Source of the DNA: an uncultured Candidatus Saccharibacteria bacterium
GTDB lineage: Bacteria; Patescibacteriota; Minisyncoccia; UBA6257; 1-14-0-10-44-23
DNA: 64,000 bases
Direction: 5' to 3'
Assembly (NCBI GenBank): GCA_964394435.1
Contig: CAYMXN010000001.1
Span: 235,928-299,927, forward strand
In this document: positions 7,606 to 57,174 of the stretch, in pieces
Layout of the letters: each line of letters begins with the position of its first letter
Numbering within the stretch: position 1 is the first letter of the stretch
Notes under the pieces: generated by a model
What the model saw: the letters and a program-made list of their open reading frames with translations, nothing else
Told to the model about the DNA's origin: nothing
Databases searched by the model: none
Made by a program: the position numbers and the translations under genes

Positions 7606-7634
7606 TTGACATATATATGCTTATATGCTATAAT
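7606..7634 (+). promoter_or_regulatory. consensus sigma70 promoter TTGACA-N17-TATAAT with extended -10 (aTGcTATAAT)
   Basis: TTGACA at 7606-7611, 17-nt spacer, TATAAT at 7629-7634. About 110 nt upstream of the GC-rich ORF start. Confidence 0.6.
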
Positions 7635-7749
7635 GTACCTTAGAAAGCTGGTAAGTGGGACGTTCCCCTTGCTTGAGCTTTAGATCTTTGAGAAGAACAA
7701 GTCTGTGCGCTAAGAACGCACATTACGAAAGAAAGGCTCGGTTACTCGA

Positions 7750-8691
7750 ATGACCATGCACCACGTTCGCGCCACGATCTGCTTCGTGTCCCCCGACAAC
7801 CAGTGGGGGTTCGCGGAGGTCGTCGACTCGGAGACGGGCGACAAGAAGACGTGGATGTGCCACCGTCTCGGCCGTCGCGACGCGTTCGCGACGCAGCAGG
7901 GTACGATCACCTACTCCGACGCGAAGATCGCGTTCGGTCCCTTCCCGCAGCACGGCGACGTCGTCGTCGTGCTGGCGGAGAGGGCTCCCCAGGAGGGCAA
8001 GCAGTACCCCCAGGCCGTGTGGACCACGGCCGAGCAGTACGACCCCTTCATCGAGATCGCCGCGGGCAACCGCGCCGCCTTCGCCGAGTACGCTCGTGAG
8101 CAGGAGCGGCTCGCCGCCAAGCGGGCGGAGCTCGAGCAGAAGCTCGCCACCCGGCGGGTGGAGCTCGAGCCCCAGGTCGGGCCGCTGCAGAAGCGGTTCG
8201 CGATCCAGGACCTGTCCCCCATCTTCAACCCCCTGAAGATGACCCGGGTCGTCGTCAAGGAGCTCGGCCGCGAGCAGATGCTCGCGGAGACCGAGGACGG
8301 CGTCAAGGTCGTCCTGCCCCTGAACGTCCAGCACCTCGTGGTGATCAACCCGCGCGGCCCGTCGATCACGGCGGCGCCGGCGGCGACGCCCCGGATGCTG
8401 GCGATCGGCGAGGTCGCGTACGTGCGCAGCGCGTACGTGAGCATCCTCGAGGAGGACGAGGACCTCGTCCTCAAGATCCAGGCGAACGCCTGGATCAGCC
8501 AGCTCCAGGCGGAGCGGGTGGTGATGACGGGCCTCACGAAGGCCCAGAACACCCTCGCCATGAAGGCGGTGGAGGCCGCGGACACCGAGCGTCAGCGGCA
8601 GGAGGCGATCGCGCGGTCGCACATCAAGGGGCCGAAGCTGTCGCCCCCGCCCAAGGGCGGCATGGCGAAGGCGCTCGCTCGCGGGCGCTAG
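7750..8691 (+). CDS. GC-rich foreign-looking ORF, 313 aa; N-terminal OB-fold / cold-shock-like region then coiled-coil; function unknown
   Basis: Abrupt GC jump (to about 68% by eye) with strong GC3 codon bias. GAAAGAAAGG RBS. N-terminus (ICFVSPDNQWGFAEVVDSETGDKKTWMCH) resembles the cold-shock-domain core. Own terminator downstream. Confidence 0.6.
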   Translation: MTMHHVRATICFVSPDNQWGFAEVVDSETGDKKTWMCHRLGRRDAFATQQGTITYSDAKIAFGPFPQHGDVVVVLAERAPQEGKQYPQAVWTTAEQYDPFIEIAAGNRAAFAEYAREQERLAAKRAELEQKLATRRVELEPQVGPLQKRFAIQDLSPIFNPLKMTRVVVKELGREQMLAETEDGVKVVLPLNVQHLVVINPRGPSITAAPAATPRMLAIGEVAYVRSAYVSILEEDEDLVLKIQANAWISQLQAERVVMTGLTKAQNTLAMKAVEAADTERQRQEAIARSHIKGPKLSPPPKGGMAKALARGR

Positions 8692-8717
8692 CACGCACTA
8701 CCCCATCCTACGGGGTT

Positions 8718-8761
8718 GGCGCGGATGCAGATCGAAAGATCTTGTGTCCGCGCCTTTTTTA
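8718..8761 (+). terminator. rho-independent terminator of the GC-rich ORF
   Basis: GGCGCGGA...TCCGCGCC hairpin followed by a TTTTTTATTT run. Confidence 0.7.
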
Positions 8762-9598
8762 TTTAAACGCGCTTACAAATTTAAGCGGGTCGATTGAGAT
8801 GCCGTTTACCTTCAGCGAAAGGTGTAAGTGTGGTCCGGAAGCGTACCCGGTTTGCCCAACCGTTCCGATGATAGTTCCTTTTTTTACTTTCTGTCCTGGT
8901 CTTACACTCATCGAGTTCAAATGAAGATAGAGCGTCGCAATACCCTGTCCGTGATCGACGATAACCGAGTTGCCGTAAATCGAATCGAGATACGCTTTTT
9001 GTACTACCCCGTCGTTGATGACCGCCACTGGCGTACCAACTTTAGCAGTAAAGTCTACTCCGTAGTGATGAGTTACTTCGGTGCCAGTTTTGCGCGTCTC
9101 GCCATATGTACTGCCAATATTACGATTATCGTAAAGCGGCAGACCAAACCCACTCGTAAAATATATTTCCGGTGTTTTAGTTTCGAGATCTTTATTAATC
9201 TGGGTATTTGAGGTAGCTAAACTTTGCGTAAGCTGTTTTGGCGTAAGATTAAGCTTTTCTGGCACGGGAAGATTAATAACCGTAAATACTCCCGGGCGAA
9301 CGGTAAGTGTTTTTTCATACGTTGTCTGGTCTTCAAACGTAATGACTAGTTTGTGTGCTCCAGCCTTGGTCGCAAACGCGATTGGCACGAGCGCCCGATA
9401 CCCTCCTTGATACGCGAAGAGCGGAACTTCTTGGGCGTCATACATCACTTTGACTGGCTTTACCTCATTACTTATTTTGATTACGACAGTCTCTCCTTGG
9501 CGCGGGGTAAGTGTAGAAAAATTTGGCGCCGTAGCGTAAGCGTTTATTGCTAGGGCGAGTGCACATATCGAAATTATAAACGGGGATAATCGTCTCAT
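8759..9598 (-). CDS. M23 family (LytM-like) peptidase, secreted
   Basis: Signal peptide. HHYGVDF and GPHLHLSL metal-binding motifs. Confidence 0.8.
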   Translation of the reverse strand: MRRLSPFIISICALALAINAYATAPNFSTLTPRQGETVVIKISNEVKPVKVMYDAQEVPLFAYQGGYRALVPIAFATKAGAHKLVITFEDQTTYEKTLTVRPGVFTVINLPVPEKLNLTPKQLTQSLATSNTQINKDLETKTPEIYFTSGFGLPLYDNRNIGSTYGETRKTGTEVTHHYGVDFTAKVGTPVAVINDGVVQKAYLDSIYGNSVIVDHGQGIATLYLHLNSMSVRPGQKVKKGTIIGTVGQTGYASGPHLHLSLKVNGISIDPLKFVSAFK

Positions 9599-19798: not shown

Positions 19799-19826
19799 TT
19801 GACAAATATAATAGGTATGCTATACT
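19799..19826 (+). promoter_or_regulatory. sigma70 promoter (TTGACA-N16-gTATGcTATACT)
   Basis: Near-consensus hexamers with an extended -10 TG. No plus-strand CDS downstream. Confidence 0.5.
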
Positions 19827-19833
19827 AATTTTA

Positions 19834-20060
19834 TCCACGGGTGGGGAAACCAGCCCCGCGGACGCGCAAGCGGCGTTACGAAAATAACGTTGCGGGCGGC
19901 CACCTGGAGAAGTTAAGAAATCACTCTTGGGCTAACGGCCCACCCCGCTGGCACGGCGCGCAAGTGTCGTGCCAGCGGGCTCTACTCTAATTTAGGGGCA
20001 TCTACATCTAATATTCGCCCCGCCTAAAGGCCAGACTCTTCTCAGAGCTCTGGCCGCTTT
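19834..20060 (+). ncRNA. candidate structured GC-rich ncRNA (about 225 nt), unclassified
   Basis: Promoter upstream, terminator (GGCCAGAG…CTCTGGCC plus T7) downstream. Internal perfect stem GCTGGCACG-N12-CGTGCCAGC and GGGTGGGG/CCCCACCC segments. GC far above surroundings. No ORF with RBS. Confidence 0.4.
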
Positions 20061-43194: not shown

Positions 43195-43440
43195 TTACCA
43201 ATCCTTCATCGCAACTTTCGCCTTGCGCTTAATTTTTTGATACAAACGTACTGCTTTTTCTTCGACCCGCGGAGAAACGACCCGTAAAATTTCTCGGCCA
43301 AGGATCCGATACTGACCGCCAACCTTATTAGCTTTAATTACGCCTTTCTTAAGAAGACGTTTGATCGTACTCGTACTCACTTTTAGAAGCTCCTTAGTTT
43401 CGTCGCTCGTGTATACGGTATTTGGGTCGATACTGCTCAT
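43195..43440 (-). CDS. excisionase-type helix-turn-helix DNA-binding protein
   Basis: YTSDETKELLKVSTSTIKRLLKKGVIKANKVGGQYRI matches the excisionase/MerR-like HTH pattern. Start placed at MSSIDPN. Confidence 0.55.
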   Translation of the reverse strand: MSSIDPNTVYTSDETKELLKVSTSTIKRLLKKGVIKANKVGGQYRILGREILRVVSPRVEEKAVRLYQKIKRKAKVAMKDW

Positions 43441-43570
43441 ATCGCCTATTTTAGACGAAGTGTCAAAAGGTGTCAAAAAGGTTCATGGGGATAATCGGTA
43501 ATAAAAAGAGCGGACGATGTATCTCTACATTGTCCGCTCATCGCCCGCCTGTTGGCGGACGGGTGCGAAA

Positions 43571-44263
43571 CTAGTGACCGAAGCGGTAACCGTAACCCTG
43601 TGCACGCGCCCGATGGGCCGCCAACATCACCTCTACAAACGTGTGGCTCATGTCGTACGACCACTCTCCCTCGATCGGGAGCGTATCGAGAGAGTACCAC
43701 TCGAGGCCACTCGCCTCGGCCTGGTTGTCTCCGCTCTTCACCCCGAACACGACCTGCTGGTCGTGCGTACCCGCGTACGTCACGATGTGGGTCGAGGCGT
43801 AGCTGTGCTTGCCCGGGTCGTGGGAGAATCCGTTGCGATTACGACCGTCCATCTGAGGCGCGTACTGGCGCATACAGACCGGATGGGCCCAACCGAGCGG
43901 CAGCTCGACGTCGATGCCGAGATCGCTCTTGTAGTGGAACTTCAAGGCGTCCTCGATGGACTGGTAAAGTCCGACCACGCCGCCGACGATGGCGAGCTTG
44001 CCAGGAAAGCGCCCCGTCCGACGACGGATGACACCGCCGAGCAACTGACCCGTCTTCGGGTCCTGCTTGACGATGACGCCGTCGACACAGGGCACGGCAC
44101 CGAGCTTCGTACGCAAGGGCCAGACCGCTCCCGAGACCCGCCCGTCCGGCTGGACGAGCTGATCGAGATCCGAACGCTGGGCGAGGATCTCGGCGAGTTG
44201 CCGAGTGCTGTAGCCCACCAGCCGATCCGCAAGGTCGGCAGTCGAATCAGTCCTTTCGGACAT
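43571..44263 (-). CDS. GC-rich foreign-looking ORF, 231 aa; Nudix-fold-like with degenerate Nudix box
   Basis: GC jump with GC3 bias. GGAGGT RBS. Region VIVKQDPKTGQLLGGVIRRRTGRFPGKLAIVGGVVGLYQSIEDALKFHYKSDLGI follows Nudix fold topology but lacks the REx2EE catalytic residues. C-terminal LEWYSLDTLP…YDMSHTFVEVML resembles the Nudix C-terminal helix. Confidence 0.5.
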   Translation of the reverse strand: MSERTDSTADLADRLVGYSTRQLAEILAQRSDLDQLVQPDGRVSGAVWPLRTKLGAVPCVDGVIVKQDPKTGQLLGGVIRRRTGRFPGKLAIVGGVVGLYQSIEDALKFHYKSDLGIDVELPLGWAHPVCMRQYAPQMDGRNRNGFSHDPGKHSYASTHIVTYAGTHDQQVVFGVKSGDNQAEASGLEWYSLDTLPIEGEWSYDMSHTFVEVMLAAHRARAQGYGYRFGH

Positions 44264-44314
44264 CGGAAACCTCCGGGAAATACCCTCCGCAACCGATTGT
44301 TGTGGATTAGATAT

Positions 44315-44343
44315 GTTATAGCATAAAATATGCCCAAAGTCAA
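44315..44343 (-). promoter_or_regulatory. sigma70 promoter TTGACT-N17-TGcTATAAC on the minus strand driving the GC-rich ORF
   Basis: -35 at 44338-44343 and -10 at 44315-44320, read as the reverse complement. Confidence 0.55.
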
Positions 44344-44396
44344 TCACCTGCTGTTGCGCCCACAAATCAAAAGCCCGCCAGCTGGCGGACTTTTGA

Positions 44397-46631
44397 TTAC
44401 TTCGTGCTTACTCCCAAGGCTTCAAAGACTGGCATAAATTGAGCGGCGTTCGGATTGCCTAGGAAGAAGTCTGGGACGTGAGCTAAGAACTGCCGTAGGT
44501 ATGTAGCTGCTTCAGCATTTTGGCCAGTAAAAGCCAGTACGACACCGAGCTTGAGCTCGGACTCGTAATCAGCTTCGTTGTACTTGAGTGCGAGACGATA
44601 TAACCTCGCCGCTTCTTCATAATTCTCTGCGTCACCATAATACCCGGCAACAATACGAGCCTCTGGTGCAGTGTTTGGGTTGCGCCCCCTGCTCTTTGCT
44701 AGTTCGATCTCTTCAAATCCTTTTTTCTGATCGCCAACTTCAAATGAAAGCAACCCATAGAAAAAGTGCGGGTCAGCAGCTACCGGATCAAGGTCGATAG
44801 CGTTTTGCATTTCTTTGAGCGCCGCTTTTTTATCTCCCTGGAGCAAGCGAAGCTTTGAGAGCATATAATACGTCTGCTGACGATTGGATGAGATACTTAT
44901 CGCCTTACGAATATTTTCCTCGATCAACTTGAAATACTTTTTATCGAGGTTTTGAAAAATCATTCCGGCATCGGCGCGTACAATGTACAGATAGTAGTTA
45001 TTCGGATCAGCCTGGATAGCCTTATCAAACTGCGCGAGTGCGTAGTCAACAACTGCTATCGTATTTGAAATTTCCTGCTGCTGCACCATCTGCGACAACG
45101 CACTTACCATGCTCTGACTGATCTCGTGCTGATATGGCTCGTTGAGTGCGATTCCTTTTTTATACGACTCGATCGCCTTATCTGGCATTCGATTTACGAA
45201 ATAGTTCAGCCCCCAGAACTGGAGGTGGTTTGCATATACAATTCTACTATTCACTACTACTCCGATGAGCAACCCGGCAACCACTACGCCTACTACGCAG
45301 CCGCCAAAGACCTTCTTTGTTGTAGTAAACGAACCTACCTCGCTGGTTGCACGATGCCGATCTGGAACATACTGGTCGACAAGCGCAATAAACACAATGA
45401 GCATCAAGTACGAGCCAAACGCATCAAAGACGAAAAAGTTTTGAGCGAGATAAGCGACTAGGGCGCCGAGTGCGAATGGGCGGAGCTCCAGAGGCGCGAA
45501 GCGAATAATCGTTCGGATAAGCAAGCCAATAAGTAGTACGTAGGCGAGAAAACCGACTACGCCACTTGTCGCTAAAATCTCAAGATATACGTTGTGCGGC
45601 TTATCCCAGTACGTTTCAGCAAAGCCAGTACGAAGCAAAACTGGGTTATAACGCTGATCAAATGGGTATTTAAAGTTTTCCCAACCATATCCCAGTAGTG
45701 GCTTTGTTTTAATAATATCGATTGCGGTTTTCCAGGCGATTAAACGGTTACCGACGGTCGCATCAAAACTTGAGATTTGAGCTAAGCGATTGAGCCCTGG
45801 GACCTTTTGCCATACAGCTGCGCTGCGGGTAGCAAAAAATACTCCACCAAAAATTATCATCGCGACAATACCGAGTAGCGGGATGTTTTTTACTATTGAT
45901 GTGCGCACTGTAAATGGCTTGAGCTTACGAAGAGCAACATACCCAAGCGTACTCATTGCGCCCAATGTCAAACCAACCAAAGCACCACGCGTCTGTCCGA
46001 GTAAGATAACAACGGCTAGGGTTGCGATGCCAAACCATAGCCAAACTCTTACCCCTTTTCGCTGGGTCGTACGAGCAAGCCAAGCTCCAATAAACATATT
46101 AAACATAAGATATGGAGCTAAAAATGCTGGGTTGCCCATAAAACTACCTGGGCGTTGAGCATCACTCCCCTCAAACACCGTTGGTGCGATTTTTTGGATG
46201 ATCGCAAAAAAGCCAACGATAAAGGCTAAGCCAAATAGATAGCTCATAAATGAGCGCCAGTTAATACGGCGACGCATCGCGACTAATACCAAGAAGTATG
46301 CGTAAAAGTGTAGGAGTGAGAAAATACCAATCGCGCGCTCTTGAATTGACCAAAAACTTCGATGCAAATTAACTCCCGTCAAACTAGCGAGCGCGAGCAT
46401 CCCCAAAAATAAACCTAGGGCGAGTACTAACTTACTTGCCCGAGGACGGTACTCTTTGCGAAATACTGCGAGCCCAATCCAAGCAGCTACTGTTAGCTCA
46501 ACTAAAATATGAAAGCCAAATACCTTTAAGGTTACGAGTGGATAAATGAGGTTATTAATATAGAGCAAAATGGCGAGCGGGCAGATATACAATCCCCAGC
46601 GCACGATTTTCGATAATACGTCTGTGTTCAT
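44397..46631 (-). CDS. O-antigen ligase-like (Wzy_C) membrane protein with C-terminal TPR repeats
   Basis: 744 aa. About 12 TM helices in the N-terminal half. The C-terminal half has repeated TPR-like helices (…YYMLSKLRLLQGDKKAALKEMQNAIDLDP…). Confidence 0.7.
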   Translation of the reverse strand: MNTDVLSKIVRWGLYICPLAILLYINNLIYPLVTLKVFGFHILVELTVAAWIGLAVFRKEYRPRASKLVLALGLFLGMLALASLTGVNLHRSFWSIQERAIGIFSLLHFYAYFLVLVAMRRRINWRSFMSYLFGLAFIVGFFAIIQKIAPTVFEGSDAQRPGSFMGNPAFLAPYLMFNMFIGAWLARTTQRKGVRVWLWFGIATLAVVILLGQTRGALVGLTLGAMSTLGYVALRKLKPFTVRTSIVKNIPLLGIVAMIIFGGVFFATRSAAVWQKVPGLNRLAQISSFDATVGNRLIAWKTAIDIIKTKPLLGYGWENFKYPFDQRYNPVLLRTGFAETYWDKPHNVYLEILATSGVVGFLAYVLLIGLLIRTIIRFAPLELRPFALGALVAYLAQNFFVFDAFGSYLMLIVFIALVDQYVPDRHRATSEVGSFTTTKKVFGGCVVGVVVAGLLIGVVVNSRIVYANHLQFWGLNYFVNRMPDKAIESYKKGIALNEPYQHEISQSMVSALSQMVQQQEISNTIAVVDYALAQFDKAIQADPNNYYLYIVRADAGMIFQNLDKKYFKLIEENIRKAISISSNRQQTYYMLSKLRLLQGDKKAALKEMQNAIDLDPVAADPHFFYGLLSFEVGDQKKGFEEIELAKSRGRNPNTAPEARIVAGYYGDAENYEEAARLYRLALKYNEADYESELKLGVVLAFTGQNAEAATYLRQFLAHVPDFFLGNPNAAQFMPVFEALGVSTK

Positions 46632-55804: not shown

Positions 55805-56142
55805 ACCAGTATTAATTATAACCCAGATTTCCCTGACAAAAAAATAAGACTATCAATGTGCCAATCCCTATCACTTTTCTCGTATAATGACGCTTCAAAC
55901 GCCTTTATATTGACACAAATAGCCTACTGTTGAAGTATATGGTATTTTTGCGATTTGTCAATGTAGCCGCCTGCCTACCTAATAAGAGTAAATGACCACT
56001 AACTCAATGCTCCAGGCTATCTGAAATGCTGAGTTAGTTGCAGGAGAAGAGGTTTGAATTCTTCTCCTGCGATGCTTGAGGCGAACTCGTACGTTCGCCT
56101 CGACCTGTTGCGCGGGGTACGACCCGCTGTCTCGAGTCTCGC

Positions 56143-56976
56143 CTACGAGGCGAGACCCTTCTTCACCGCGGCGAGGACCACCTCGCCGTCGATTCCGCTG
56201 GCACCCCAGTAGGCGGGCTGTCCCGCCTTGCCGAGGCCTGCGCCACCCGACCAGCCACCCAAGTGCTCCTTCAAGCTGGCACAGAGCGCGCCGTCCCCGT
56301 AGAAGTTCACCTCCCCGTCCTTCGAGAGGATGAGGAGCTGGTCGACGGCCCCGTAGAGGCGGTCAGCGACCGCTGAGGTCTTCGAGTGGTCCATGCGGAC
56401 CACCGTCAGACGTCCGTCCACCTCCTTCGCGCCGATGGCGCGGAGGGCCTCTGTCTCGTGCGCGGGGGTCACCCCCTGCGCCGCACGGTCTAGCGCACGA
56501 ATGCGCTCGACCTCGGCGTCAGATGCCCCGAGCGCCCGCATCGCAGGGACGTACCCCGCGTCGTTGGCACCTACGAGCTCGATCCAGCGACGAGTCTGCT
56601 CGCTGGTCGGCATCTTAATCAGTGCCAAAACCTGCTGCACCGCCGGGGGACGGTGCGACTGGTCGCCGTGATGGTCGACGACCACCACCTCAGTCTGCTC
56701 CGGCCACTCCTTGGTCGGCGAGCACTCGACGAAGATGACGCATTCGATGCCGGCACACCGCGTCGACTTACGGTTGTGCTGCCAGAAGTCTGGTCCGGTC
56801 TGGACCAGGATCTCCTCGACCGTGAGGCCAAGGTCGCCTGCGGCGGCGTAGACATGCGACCCCCAGCCCTTGTTGGGCTGGACCCACTTCTCACCCGCGA
56901 GGGTGAGGAGAGAGCGAACGACCTCCATTTCGAGGTCGTTCCCGCCGAGTACGAACAAACGGTTGGCCTTACCCAT
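56143..56976 (-). CDS. GC-rich foreign-looking ORF, 277 aa; DHH-like phosphoesterase?
   Basis: GC jump with GC3 bias. Start at MGKANRLFVLGG with GGAG RBS. VVVDHHGD (DHH motif III-like) and LGGNDLEMEVVRSLL (motif I-like, substituted). C-terminal Gly-rich GGWSGGAGLGKAG where DHHA1 has GGGH. Weak assignment. Confidence 0.45.
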   Translation of the reverse strand: MGKANRLFVLGGNDLEMEVVRSLLTLAGEKWVQPNKGWGSHVYAAAGDLGLTVEEILVQTGPDFWQHNRKSTRCAGIECVIFVECSPTKEWPEQTEVVVVDHHGDQSHRPPAVQQVLALIKMPTSEQTRRWIELVGANDAGYVPAMRALGASDAEVERIRALDRAAQGVTPAHETEALRAIGAKEVDGRLTVVRMDHSKTSAVADRLYGAVDQLLILSKDGEVNFYGDGALCASLKEHLGGWSGGAGLGKAGQPAYWGASGIDGEVVLAAVKKGLAS

Positions 56977-57174
56977 CGAAATCTCCAGTTGGTCCGGAAG
57001 GACCGTGAATCCACTTCGGGCGTTTCCGCTCAGGTAGGACGACACCTCTGGATAAGCACTTTATTTTACAACCCGGCTTGGAAGGTTGTCCGCTCTGCGA
57101 GCAGCGTTTTAGGCGCAAATACGCTCAAAACACTGCTCACGAACGGTCTATTTCAATGAACGACTTAGATATTT

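Follow-up and report, generated by a model that had tools for sequence, protein, structure and literature searches.

The window, i.e., the whole 64-kb stretch of DNA analysed here, has an average GC content of 48% and contains three sharp GC-rich blocks (7701-8775, 43526-44300 and 56026-57050). The middle block, over which consecutive 150-bp windows all keep a GC content of 58% or more, harbors an intact open reading frame located on the reverse strand (43571-44263), which starts with an ATG at 44263, ends with a TAG stop codon at 43573-43571 and encodes a Nudix-fold protein of 230 residues related to DUF4916; the 231-aa ORF of the original prediction corresponds to these 230 codons plus the stop. 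The middle island reaches 63.1% GC between flanks of 43.6% and 46.2%, and the ORF itself 63.5%, with values of 0.66, 0.44 and 0.80 at the first, second and third codon positions, respectively, against a GC3 of about 0.47 in the neighbouring genes, in agreement with the GC content of 63-68% and the GC3 bias which had been claimed for this region. As had also been proposed, the gene is placed between a Wzy_C/TPR gene (44397-46631), the product of which is a membrane protein, and an excisionase-like gene, an HTH_17 gene of 81 residues (43195-43440) which passes the 'excisionase family' domain model. The whole belongs to a long polysaccharide locus comprising glycosyltransferases, a DegT-type aminotransferase, a flippase, an NDP-sugar SDR and Wzy.

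The expression signals of the gene are readily recognized, and most of them recur in a diverged sister strain (L022, run SRR20074300), the DNA of which is ~82% identical over the region. A Shine-Dalgarno sequence GGAGGT occurs on the reverse strand at 44269-44274, 6 nt upstream of the ATG, as predicted, and the same GGAGGTTTC-(C)G-ATG arrangement is found at the ribosome-binding site of L022. Further upstream on the same strand, a motif scan locates the promoter-like TTGACT-17 nt-(TGc)TATAAC with an extended -10 (44315-44343), which matches the consensus at 10 of 12 positions, in addition to the TGn extension, and thus deserves the near-consensus label it had received; a generic promoter scan missed this site because the final base of its -10 element is a C. 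The corresponding promoter of L022 reads TTGACT-17-CATAAT, with both the -35 and the -10 elements conserved in position. The pattern TTGACW-N14-TGCTATAWY occurs three times in the 64 kb, for 0.03 expected, once upstream of each GC-rich island; since it was derived from these three sites themselves, its informative part is the absence from the window of any further site fitting it with one mismatch or less. All three island promoters look like strong promoters of the organism itself, and 'host-style' was accordingly an apt description. A fourth close variant of the promoter precedes a structured, GC-rich stretch devoid of any ORF at 19835-20060.

Between the promoter and the ribosome-binding site, the alignment of the window with L022 delineates a 29-nt stretch of the 5'-UTR on the reverse strand (44281-44309) that is 100% identical in the two strains, against ~82% for the surrounding DNA, and occurs only once in the window. 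It might serve as a leader or an operator; the 5'-UTR shows no significant RNA fold (z = -1.2), and no Rfam element was matched in the conserved 5'-UTR or in the terminator. At the other end of the gene, the double hairpin and T-run of the original prediction are present as an intrinsic terminator on the reverse strand (43500-43560), composed of hairpin 1 (43560-43543) and hairpin 2 (43539-43508), followed by TTTTTATT with a T-run at 43507-43500. The corresponding RNA folds with -36.7 kcal/mol (z = -6.2 against shuffles), and both hairpins are kept in L022, where several stem positions differ and the stability is equal. The gene is interpreted as a single-gene transcription unit.

Hairpin 1 also forms one copy of an 18-nt direct repeat. 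The upstream copy, identified by pattern search, repeat finder and folding, coincides with the terminator hairpin of the Wzy_C/TPR gene on the reverse strand (44373-44390), so that the two copies, GTCCGCCAGCTGGCGGGC (44390-44373) and GTCCGCCAACAGGCGGGC (43560-43543), bracket the promoter and the ORF. A pattern search finds the repeat at these two sites only in the window, for 0.08 expected, and L022 carries both copies. It may correspond to an insertion scar or to the mere reuse of a terminator; a target duplication or a recombination site was also considered. The repeat finder returns no such repeats around the other two GC-rich islands.

The sharp break in base composition coincides with a single ORF and the public gene calls pick another frame, two points that could suggest an unreal feature, due either to a chimeric assembly or to an antisense ORF being the true gene. 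Such an explanation is scarcely credible. Over one or both junctions, the window is matched at 100% identity by eight Logan contigs from two SRA series, one of these contigs being 915 bp in length, and L022 exhibits the same order of elements, i.e., Wzy, hairpin, promoter, GC-rich gene, double hairpin and HTH. These two observations rule out a chimeric assembly and confirm the junctions on which the original prediction depended. The antisense ORF, of 269 residues on the forward strand (43517-44326), is the one listed, in a 269-aa or a 256-aa version, by the gene calls on three deposited contigs, including that of L022 (L015, L018 and L022), while the only record of the sense protein comes from the 915-bp Logan contig, which leaves this protein effectively invisible in databases. 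With a GC1 of 0.75 and a GC3 of 0.64, the antisense frame displays the wrong pattern for a high-GC gene and it is rejected as spurious on the grounds of GC by codon position, of homology and of fold. The real gene lies in the sense frame, which combines the expected GC3 signature with expression signals (RBS, promoter and terminator), homologues, a confidently predicted Nudix fold and a dN/dS below 1. The finding thus corrects a public mis-annotation of the locus.

The comparison with the ortholog from L022 also gives some indications on the origin and the age of the gene. Both proteins share 81% of their amino acids (dN 0.14, dS 0.57, dN/dS 0.25), and this dN/dS ratio is 5-15 times that of the neighbours (Wzy, 0.044; HTH gene, 0.016). 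The GC3 amounts to 0.80 in the window and to 0.88 in L022, and, among the codons specifying identical amino acids, 23 changes to A or T at the third position are specific to the window for 4 specific to L022, indicating that the ancestral copy was even GC-richer and that the window lineage is ameliorating. In the closest relative (P0004, 60% identity), the gene has a GC3 of 0.85 and the rest of the contig a GC content of 58%; at each of the loci examined, the GC content of the family gene exceeds that of the DNA around it. The neighbour-joining tree of the family is star-like and singles out no donor lineage. No empty site was found: all contigs with the neighbouring HTH gene carry the island and are 100% identical, no relatives of the Wzy protein occur in the genome contigs searched for such a site, and L022, the sole diverged relative found, also possesses the island.

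The presence of an ortholog at the same site in the sister strain indicates that the probable acquisition is old and selected, and not an assembly artefact. The gene is probably foreign: read most economically, it came long ago from a GC-richer organism and has since been kept by selection. The word 'inserted' used in the original prediction holds with respect to the foreign composition (GC3 of 0.80 against ~0.47), with the reservation that the presumed insertion is old and common to the sister strain. GroEL assigns the window to CPR bacteria of the Parcubacteria/Paceibacteria type, the GroEL proteins of the relatives P0183 and P0184 being 97-98% identical. In the proposed scheme, for which we infer the donor as well as the ligand and the catalysis, a Parcubacteria-type CPR bacterium would have received the gene, within its surface-polysaccharide locus, from a donor of higher GC content before the split from L022; purifying selection would keep it in place, the strong host-type extended -10 promoter would drive its transcription, and the gene would be slowly losing GC in the window lineage. 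In this respect, the locus neatly illustrates how an old, presumably foreign ORF can reside in a reduced genome with expression signals of native style on either side.

Integrative elements of actinomycetes are GC-rich and carry excisionases, and the association of an excisionase-like gene with a Nudix gene evokes the remnant of such an element, with a Nudix protein of the Pif type. This candidate was rejected: no integrase, replication or transfer gene was recognized among the neighbouring genes scanned, tblastn finds no plasmid or phage relatives, and the HTH gene has the native composition of the host. Given this composition and the lack of an integrase among the neighbours scanned, the 'excisionase-like' gene probably encodes just a small HTH regulator.

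Searches performed with the window protein alone retrieve no Pfam match, PF00293 included, and nothing significant in Pfam, NCBIfam and PDB sequence searches, the marginal matches being NudI (E 0.013) and the PDB entry 4ktb (E 0.14), so that a family profile was needed. A large protein database contains 14 relatives with 48-60% identity, and a profile built from 15 homologues matches 4ktb at 6.6e-5. Among the 15 members, 13 match PF16262 (DUF4916, Nudix clan), with a best value of 1.9e-9, and 11 weakly match PF00293 (NUDIX), with a best value of 1.4e-4. An exhaustive profile search among 1.84 billion representatives yields 227 clusters, of which 34 at E<=1e-30; a second, word-indexed search with 65 sequences adds few members. 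Scans of metagenomes and of genomes with the family profile give two loci each, the family occurring in 2 of ~185,000 species genomes, both from CPR bacteria (a Saccharibacteria MAG and Microgenomates OLB22). The AlphaFold model, built from the 15-sequence alignment, is predicted with a pLDDT of 82 and a pTM of 0.77, and Foldseek returns 372 matches against the PDB at E<=1e-3, the top ones listed being all Nudix proteins (TM 0.75 for 4ktb). The protein displays the alpha/beta/alpha fold of the Nudix superfamily (clan CL0261), with a loop-helix-loop at the position of the Nudix box. The Nudix topology read from the sequence in the original prediction, which was to stand or fall with the predicted structure, is thus upheld. 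Judging from these profile matches, the protein appears to belong to a rare family, known to date from CPR/Patescibacteria genomes and distantly related to DUF4916 (4KTB), as a sister clade or an outlying member rather than a core member. All members share an N-terminal helical extension of ~55 residues.

According to the family alignments, the degenerate Nudix box covers residues 95-114 (43921-43981 on the reverse strand; G-VVGLY-Q-SIEDALK-F-H-Y-K-S-D). It reads G-x5-Q-x7-F-H-Y-K-S-D-L-G-I in the window protein and G-x5-E-x7-R-H-[FWY]-x-[TS]-D-L-G in the 65-member alignment, and departs in both cases from the canonical box GX5EX7REUXEEXGU with its metal-binding glutamates (PF00293). The first Glu of 'RE' is replaced by His (H110) in 59 of the 65 members and the first Glu of 'EE' by Thr or Ser, while D114, the last acidic position of the box, is kept as Asp in 59 members. 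The box of 4ktb (RHIEKDLG) shows the same R-H-x-x-x-D pattern as the family, of which the window copy keeps H110 and D114 and replaces R by F. E101 and R109 are each found in 54 of the 65 members; R109 accompanies E101 in 52 of 54 cases and is absent from 9 of the 11 members devoid of E101, a co-variation such as the structural Glu-Arg pair of Nudix proteins would produce. The window copy departs from the family at E101Q, R109F and in the GGQEA loop; the ortholog from L022 has the same Q and F at positions 101 and 109, which points to a lineage variant and not to decay. More generally, the degenerate box R-H-x-x-T/S-D is a trait of the family and does not reflect the decay of the window copy.

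Beyond the box, all 65 aligned members share D61, R81 and G94-G95, and E183 (64 of 65), W189, K152 and H153 are nearly invariant. The loss of the catalytic REx2EE, in place of which F-H-Y-K-S-D is found, was correctly recognized in the original prediction. The canonical hydrolase site is gone, and the conserved polar set is compatible with a re-invented active site as well as with a binding site. The terms 'non-hydrolytic' and 'nucleotide sensor' are, for this reason, not established, D61, R81, E183, H110, D114, K152 and H153 being equally suitable for a modified active site. A serious, if less probable, alternative is that the protein acts as a non-catalytic ligand sensor or binder comparable to the Nudix domain of NrtR, which would signal to the HTH_17 protein or to the glycan machinery. 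Three of the four catalytic residues of the box are replaced throughout the family, and the window copy has additionally lost the Glu/Arg pair; the top Foldseek matches include 2fml, which we take to be a non-catalytic NrtR-type Nudix domain, and 3gz8, an ADP-ribose-bound NrtR Nudix domain; and the small HTH gene lies directly downstream in both strains. However, the (near) invariance of the polar residues is just as typical of an altered active site, the protein is devoid of any fused DNA-binding or output domain, the HTH_17 gene is not conserved beside the family members elsewhere, and the Nudix-fold gene possesses its own promoter.

The one line of evidence bearing on the function is provided by the gene neighbourhoods of the family members. 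In the window and in L022, the gene lies between Wzy on one side and NDP-sugar SDR, RmlAB and flippase genes on the other. In L022, the locus also contains RmlB, RmlA and, in the same cluster, a separate 157-aa NUDIX protein with a Gmm-like box, so that the two proteins are probably not redundant. In the loci of P0009 and P0004 (L005 and L008), the gene is paired, in a conserved divergent arrangement, with an SDR of 354 residues, the two SDRs being 74% identical, and a flippase and a GT11 occur downstream of the P0009 gene. Elsewhere, the gene comes after an SDR (P0003, locus L009). The genes of P0181 and P0066, distant members with ~30% identity to the window protein, reside inside GT/methyltransferase clusters, the surroundings being a GT2/GT4/methyltransferase cluster in L024 and a GT1, a Methyltransf_21 and an epimerase in L025/L026. 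NDP-sugar or glycosyltransferase clusters thus surround the family members in about 5 of 9 lineages; in four lineages (L001, L002, L014 and L023), glycan genes are missing from the vicinity. The SDRs found beside the gene come from distinct subfamilies with mutual identities of only ~25%, and hence do not implicate a single pathway. GDP-mannose dehydratase was rejected as an identity for them: the NCBIfam matches correspond to generic NDP-sugar dehydratases/epimerases, below the equivalog cut-offs, RmlB from L022, a true NCBIfam match, being the exception. Since foreign DNA readily accumulates in polysaccharide loci, the co-location with glycan genes could be passive.

Taken together, these data favor a tentative reading, to which we give a probability of about 45%, according to which the gene is an old foreign acquisition and the protein binds an NDP-sugar or a related metabolite of glycan synthesis, which it probably hydrolyses. 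By analogy with GDP-mannose mannosyl hydrolase, the best guess is an accessory protein of surface glycan synthesis that binds or hydrolyses nucleotide sugars. The protein would bind an NDP-sugar or a related nucleoside-diphosphate-X metabolite of glycan biosynthesis, hydrolysis would probably occur at the non-canonical His/Asp site, and the pool of precursors would be trimmed or proof-read, as it is by Gmm/WcaH in the colanic-acid cluster. The recurrent placement of the family among NDP-sugar and glycosyltransferase genes would represent the first functional lead for DUF4916.

A passenger or conflict gene, i.e., a foreign nucleotide-metabolising protein settled in a hypervariable locus and engaged in a Pif-like immunity or in the degradation of immune-signalling nucleotides, is improbable. 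The sharing of TTGACW-N14-TGCTATAWY by the three GC-rich single-gene islands, the presence in one of them (island C) of a DHH-type hydrolase matching CRISPR type III CorA-associated models, and the excisionase-family HTH next door are consistent with such a role, as is the reportedly frequent occurrence of Nudix genes on actinomycete integrative elements, one of which, Pif, codes for a Nudix protein responsible for conjugal immunity (PMC3218068). Yet PADLOC gives no match for the window protein and three of its relatives, which led to the rejection of a defence system, and tblastn finds no relatives among 50,697 phage and 72,556 plasmid records. The absence of recognized mobility genes among the neighbours scanned and the host composition and low dN/dS of the HTH gene point in the same direction. 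The neighbours are glycan-synthesis genes, and this adjacency recurs in distant members of the family. Even bolder, and very improbable, is the idea that the three islands form a coordinated set captured from GC-rich organisms, possibly the hosts of the symbiont, and devoted to the degradation of nucleotide-based immune or signalling molecules, the DUF4916-like fold relying on a new His/Asp chemistry in place of the Nudix glutamates. Such a set would comprise the Nudix-like protein, the CorA-associated-type DHH hydrolase and a 313-aa protein without assignment, all three preceded by the same promoter.

With respect to known systems, the locus resembles that of Pif from pSAM2 in that a Nudix-fold protein is encoded by high-GC DNA, mobile in the case of Pif, alongside an excisionase-type HTH. 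It differs from it by the lack of recognized mobility genes among the neighbours scanned and of phage or plasmid relatives in the tblastn searches, and by an HTH gene that is compositionally native; Pif, moreover, needs a canonical Nudix motif. The NrtR-type Nudix domains (3GZ8, 3GZ5 and 2FML) rank among the top structural neighbours retrieved by Foldseek and, like the window protein, exhibit a degenerate box, used in their case for ADP-ribose sensing. However, the window protein has no counterpart of the winged-helix DNA-binding domain that forms part of NrtR, the sequence identity drops to 13-16%, and the gene lies in a context of glycan genes instead of NAD genes.

The crystal structure 4KTB from Jonesia denitrificans, which represents PF16262, was deposited as a 'possible asymmetric Ap4A hydrolase' and shares with the family the re-modelled box R-H-x-x-x-D. 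In contrast, the window protein falls below every Pfam threshold, with ~20% identity to 4ktb, and the CPR clade is distinguished by a longer N-terminal helical extension and by the additional invariant motifs CMRQYAP, DPGKHSYASTH, GGQEA and EWSYDM. These proteins make up a small clade or variant, found across CPR bacteria, that is new to the DUF4916-type Nudix fold. No literature was found on DUF4916 or 4KTB, and, DUF4916 being devoid of any known function, membership explains little: the protein appears as a fairly ordinary member of a poorly known family and does not overturn current understanding.

A further parallel is offered by GDP-mannose mannosyl hydrolase (Gmm/WcaH/NudD, PDB 2I8T), similarly encoded in a surface-polysaccharide cluster beside NDP-sugar SDR enzymes. 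This catalytic Nudix enzyme has lost two glutamates of the box and kept a single acidic residue, and a His located outside the box aids catalysis. Gmm is absent from the matches of the family profile at E<=10, no NCBIfam equivalog match is obtained, and its box reads RL..AE instead of the RH..[TS]D of the family; because a specific similarity is lacking, the resemblance is one of analogy and not of membership. If the His/Asp-substituted Nudix helix proved to be catalytic, it would represent a new active-site solution beside those of GDP-mannose mannosyl hydrolase and IPP isomerase.

Two other GC-rich blocks of the window, islands A and C, each contain a single gene and have in common with island E, the GC-rich block harbouring the Nudix-fold gene, the same type of promoter. 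Island A (window 7701-8775, 67% GC) contains a plus-strand ORF (7750-8691) encoding a protein of 313 aa with a GC3 of 0.97, for which the Pfam and PADLOC searches returned no match. The ORF is preceded by the promoter TTGACA-17-TGCTATAAT (window 7606-7634), a perfect example of the extended -10 type, and a terminator hairpin occurs at window ~8720-8760. The NCBI contig records at this place consist exclusively of an antisense ORF of 323 aa (7723-8694, minus strand) and the plus-strand protein is recorded from Logan only; island A is probably another strand mis-annotation.

Island C (window 56026-57050, 65% GC) carries a minus-strand ORF (56143-56976) which encodes a 277-aa product with a GC3 of 0.83. 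A Pfam search with this protein gave no match, and the PADLOC models it matches are C3a116 (7.6e-47) and DHH_CorA (4.6e-31), the latter representing a DHH-family hydrolase found in association with CorA-type type III CRISPR accessory modules. A promoter of the type common to islands A and E is located at window 57203-57175, and the context of the ribosome-binding site and start codon, GGAGATTTCGATG, resembles that of island E.

The strong promoter motif is present a fourth time, as TTGACA-16-TGCTATACT, on the plus strand together with a GC-rich stretch, at window 19799-20060. The ~230 nt downstream of the motif are devoid of any ORF, visibly self-complementary, and terminated at the 3' end by a hairpin followed by a T-run. 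Neither a tRNA nor a tmRNA was found in this stretch and Rfam gave no match at E < 0.1; the stretch is a candidate unclassified small RNA.

The promoter and ORF of island E are flanked by two directly oriented copies of an 18-nt hairpin sequence (window 44373-44390 and 43543-43560), identical at 16 of 18 positions and both kept in the sister strain. No further copy occurs in the 64-kb window, and the repeat may originate from an insertion scar or from the duplication of a terminator. The adjoining HTH_17 gene (window 43195-43440, minus strand, 81 aa), described as excisionase-like in the original prediction, possesses its own promoter (11/12 match), and shows extreme conservation in the sister strain, with 96% amino acid identity and a dN/dS of 0.016. 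The best-scoring models are the magnetosome MamR (2.9e-12, far below the MamR cut-off) and the PADLOC MADS Mad1 HTH (4e-5). The gene likely encodes a small regulator and not an excisionase.

Relatives of the island E protein also occur at other loci. In one case, a canonical Nudix hydrolase gene has its start overlapped by the gene for a distant family member of 35% identity (L014, 973-2213), and two paralogues ~640 bp apart adjoin parA and parB (L023, 6314-8251).

In the sister strain (contig L022, run SRR20074300), the HTH_17 gene is directly followed by an additional NUDIX gene (PF00293, 157 aa, L022 3520-3993), then by RmlB and RmlA. This gene is absent from the window, and the polysaccharide locus is therefore mosaic between the strains. 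In the box of the 157-aa protein, GGFIGYNETFEQACQRIAKRELG, two glutamates are missing, a loss that follows the pattern of GDP-mannose mannosyl hydrolase.
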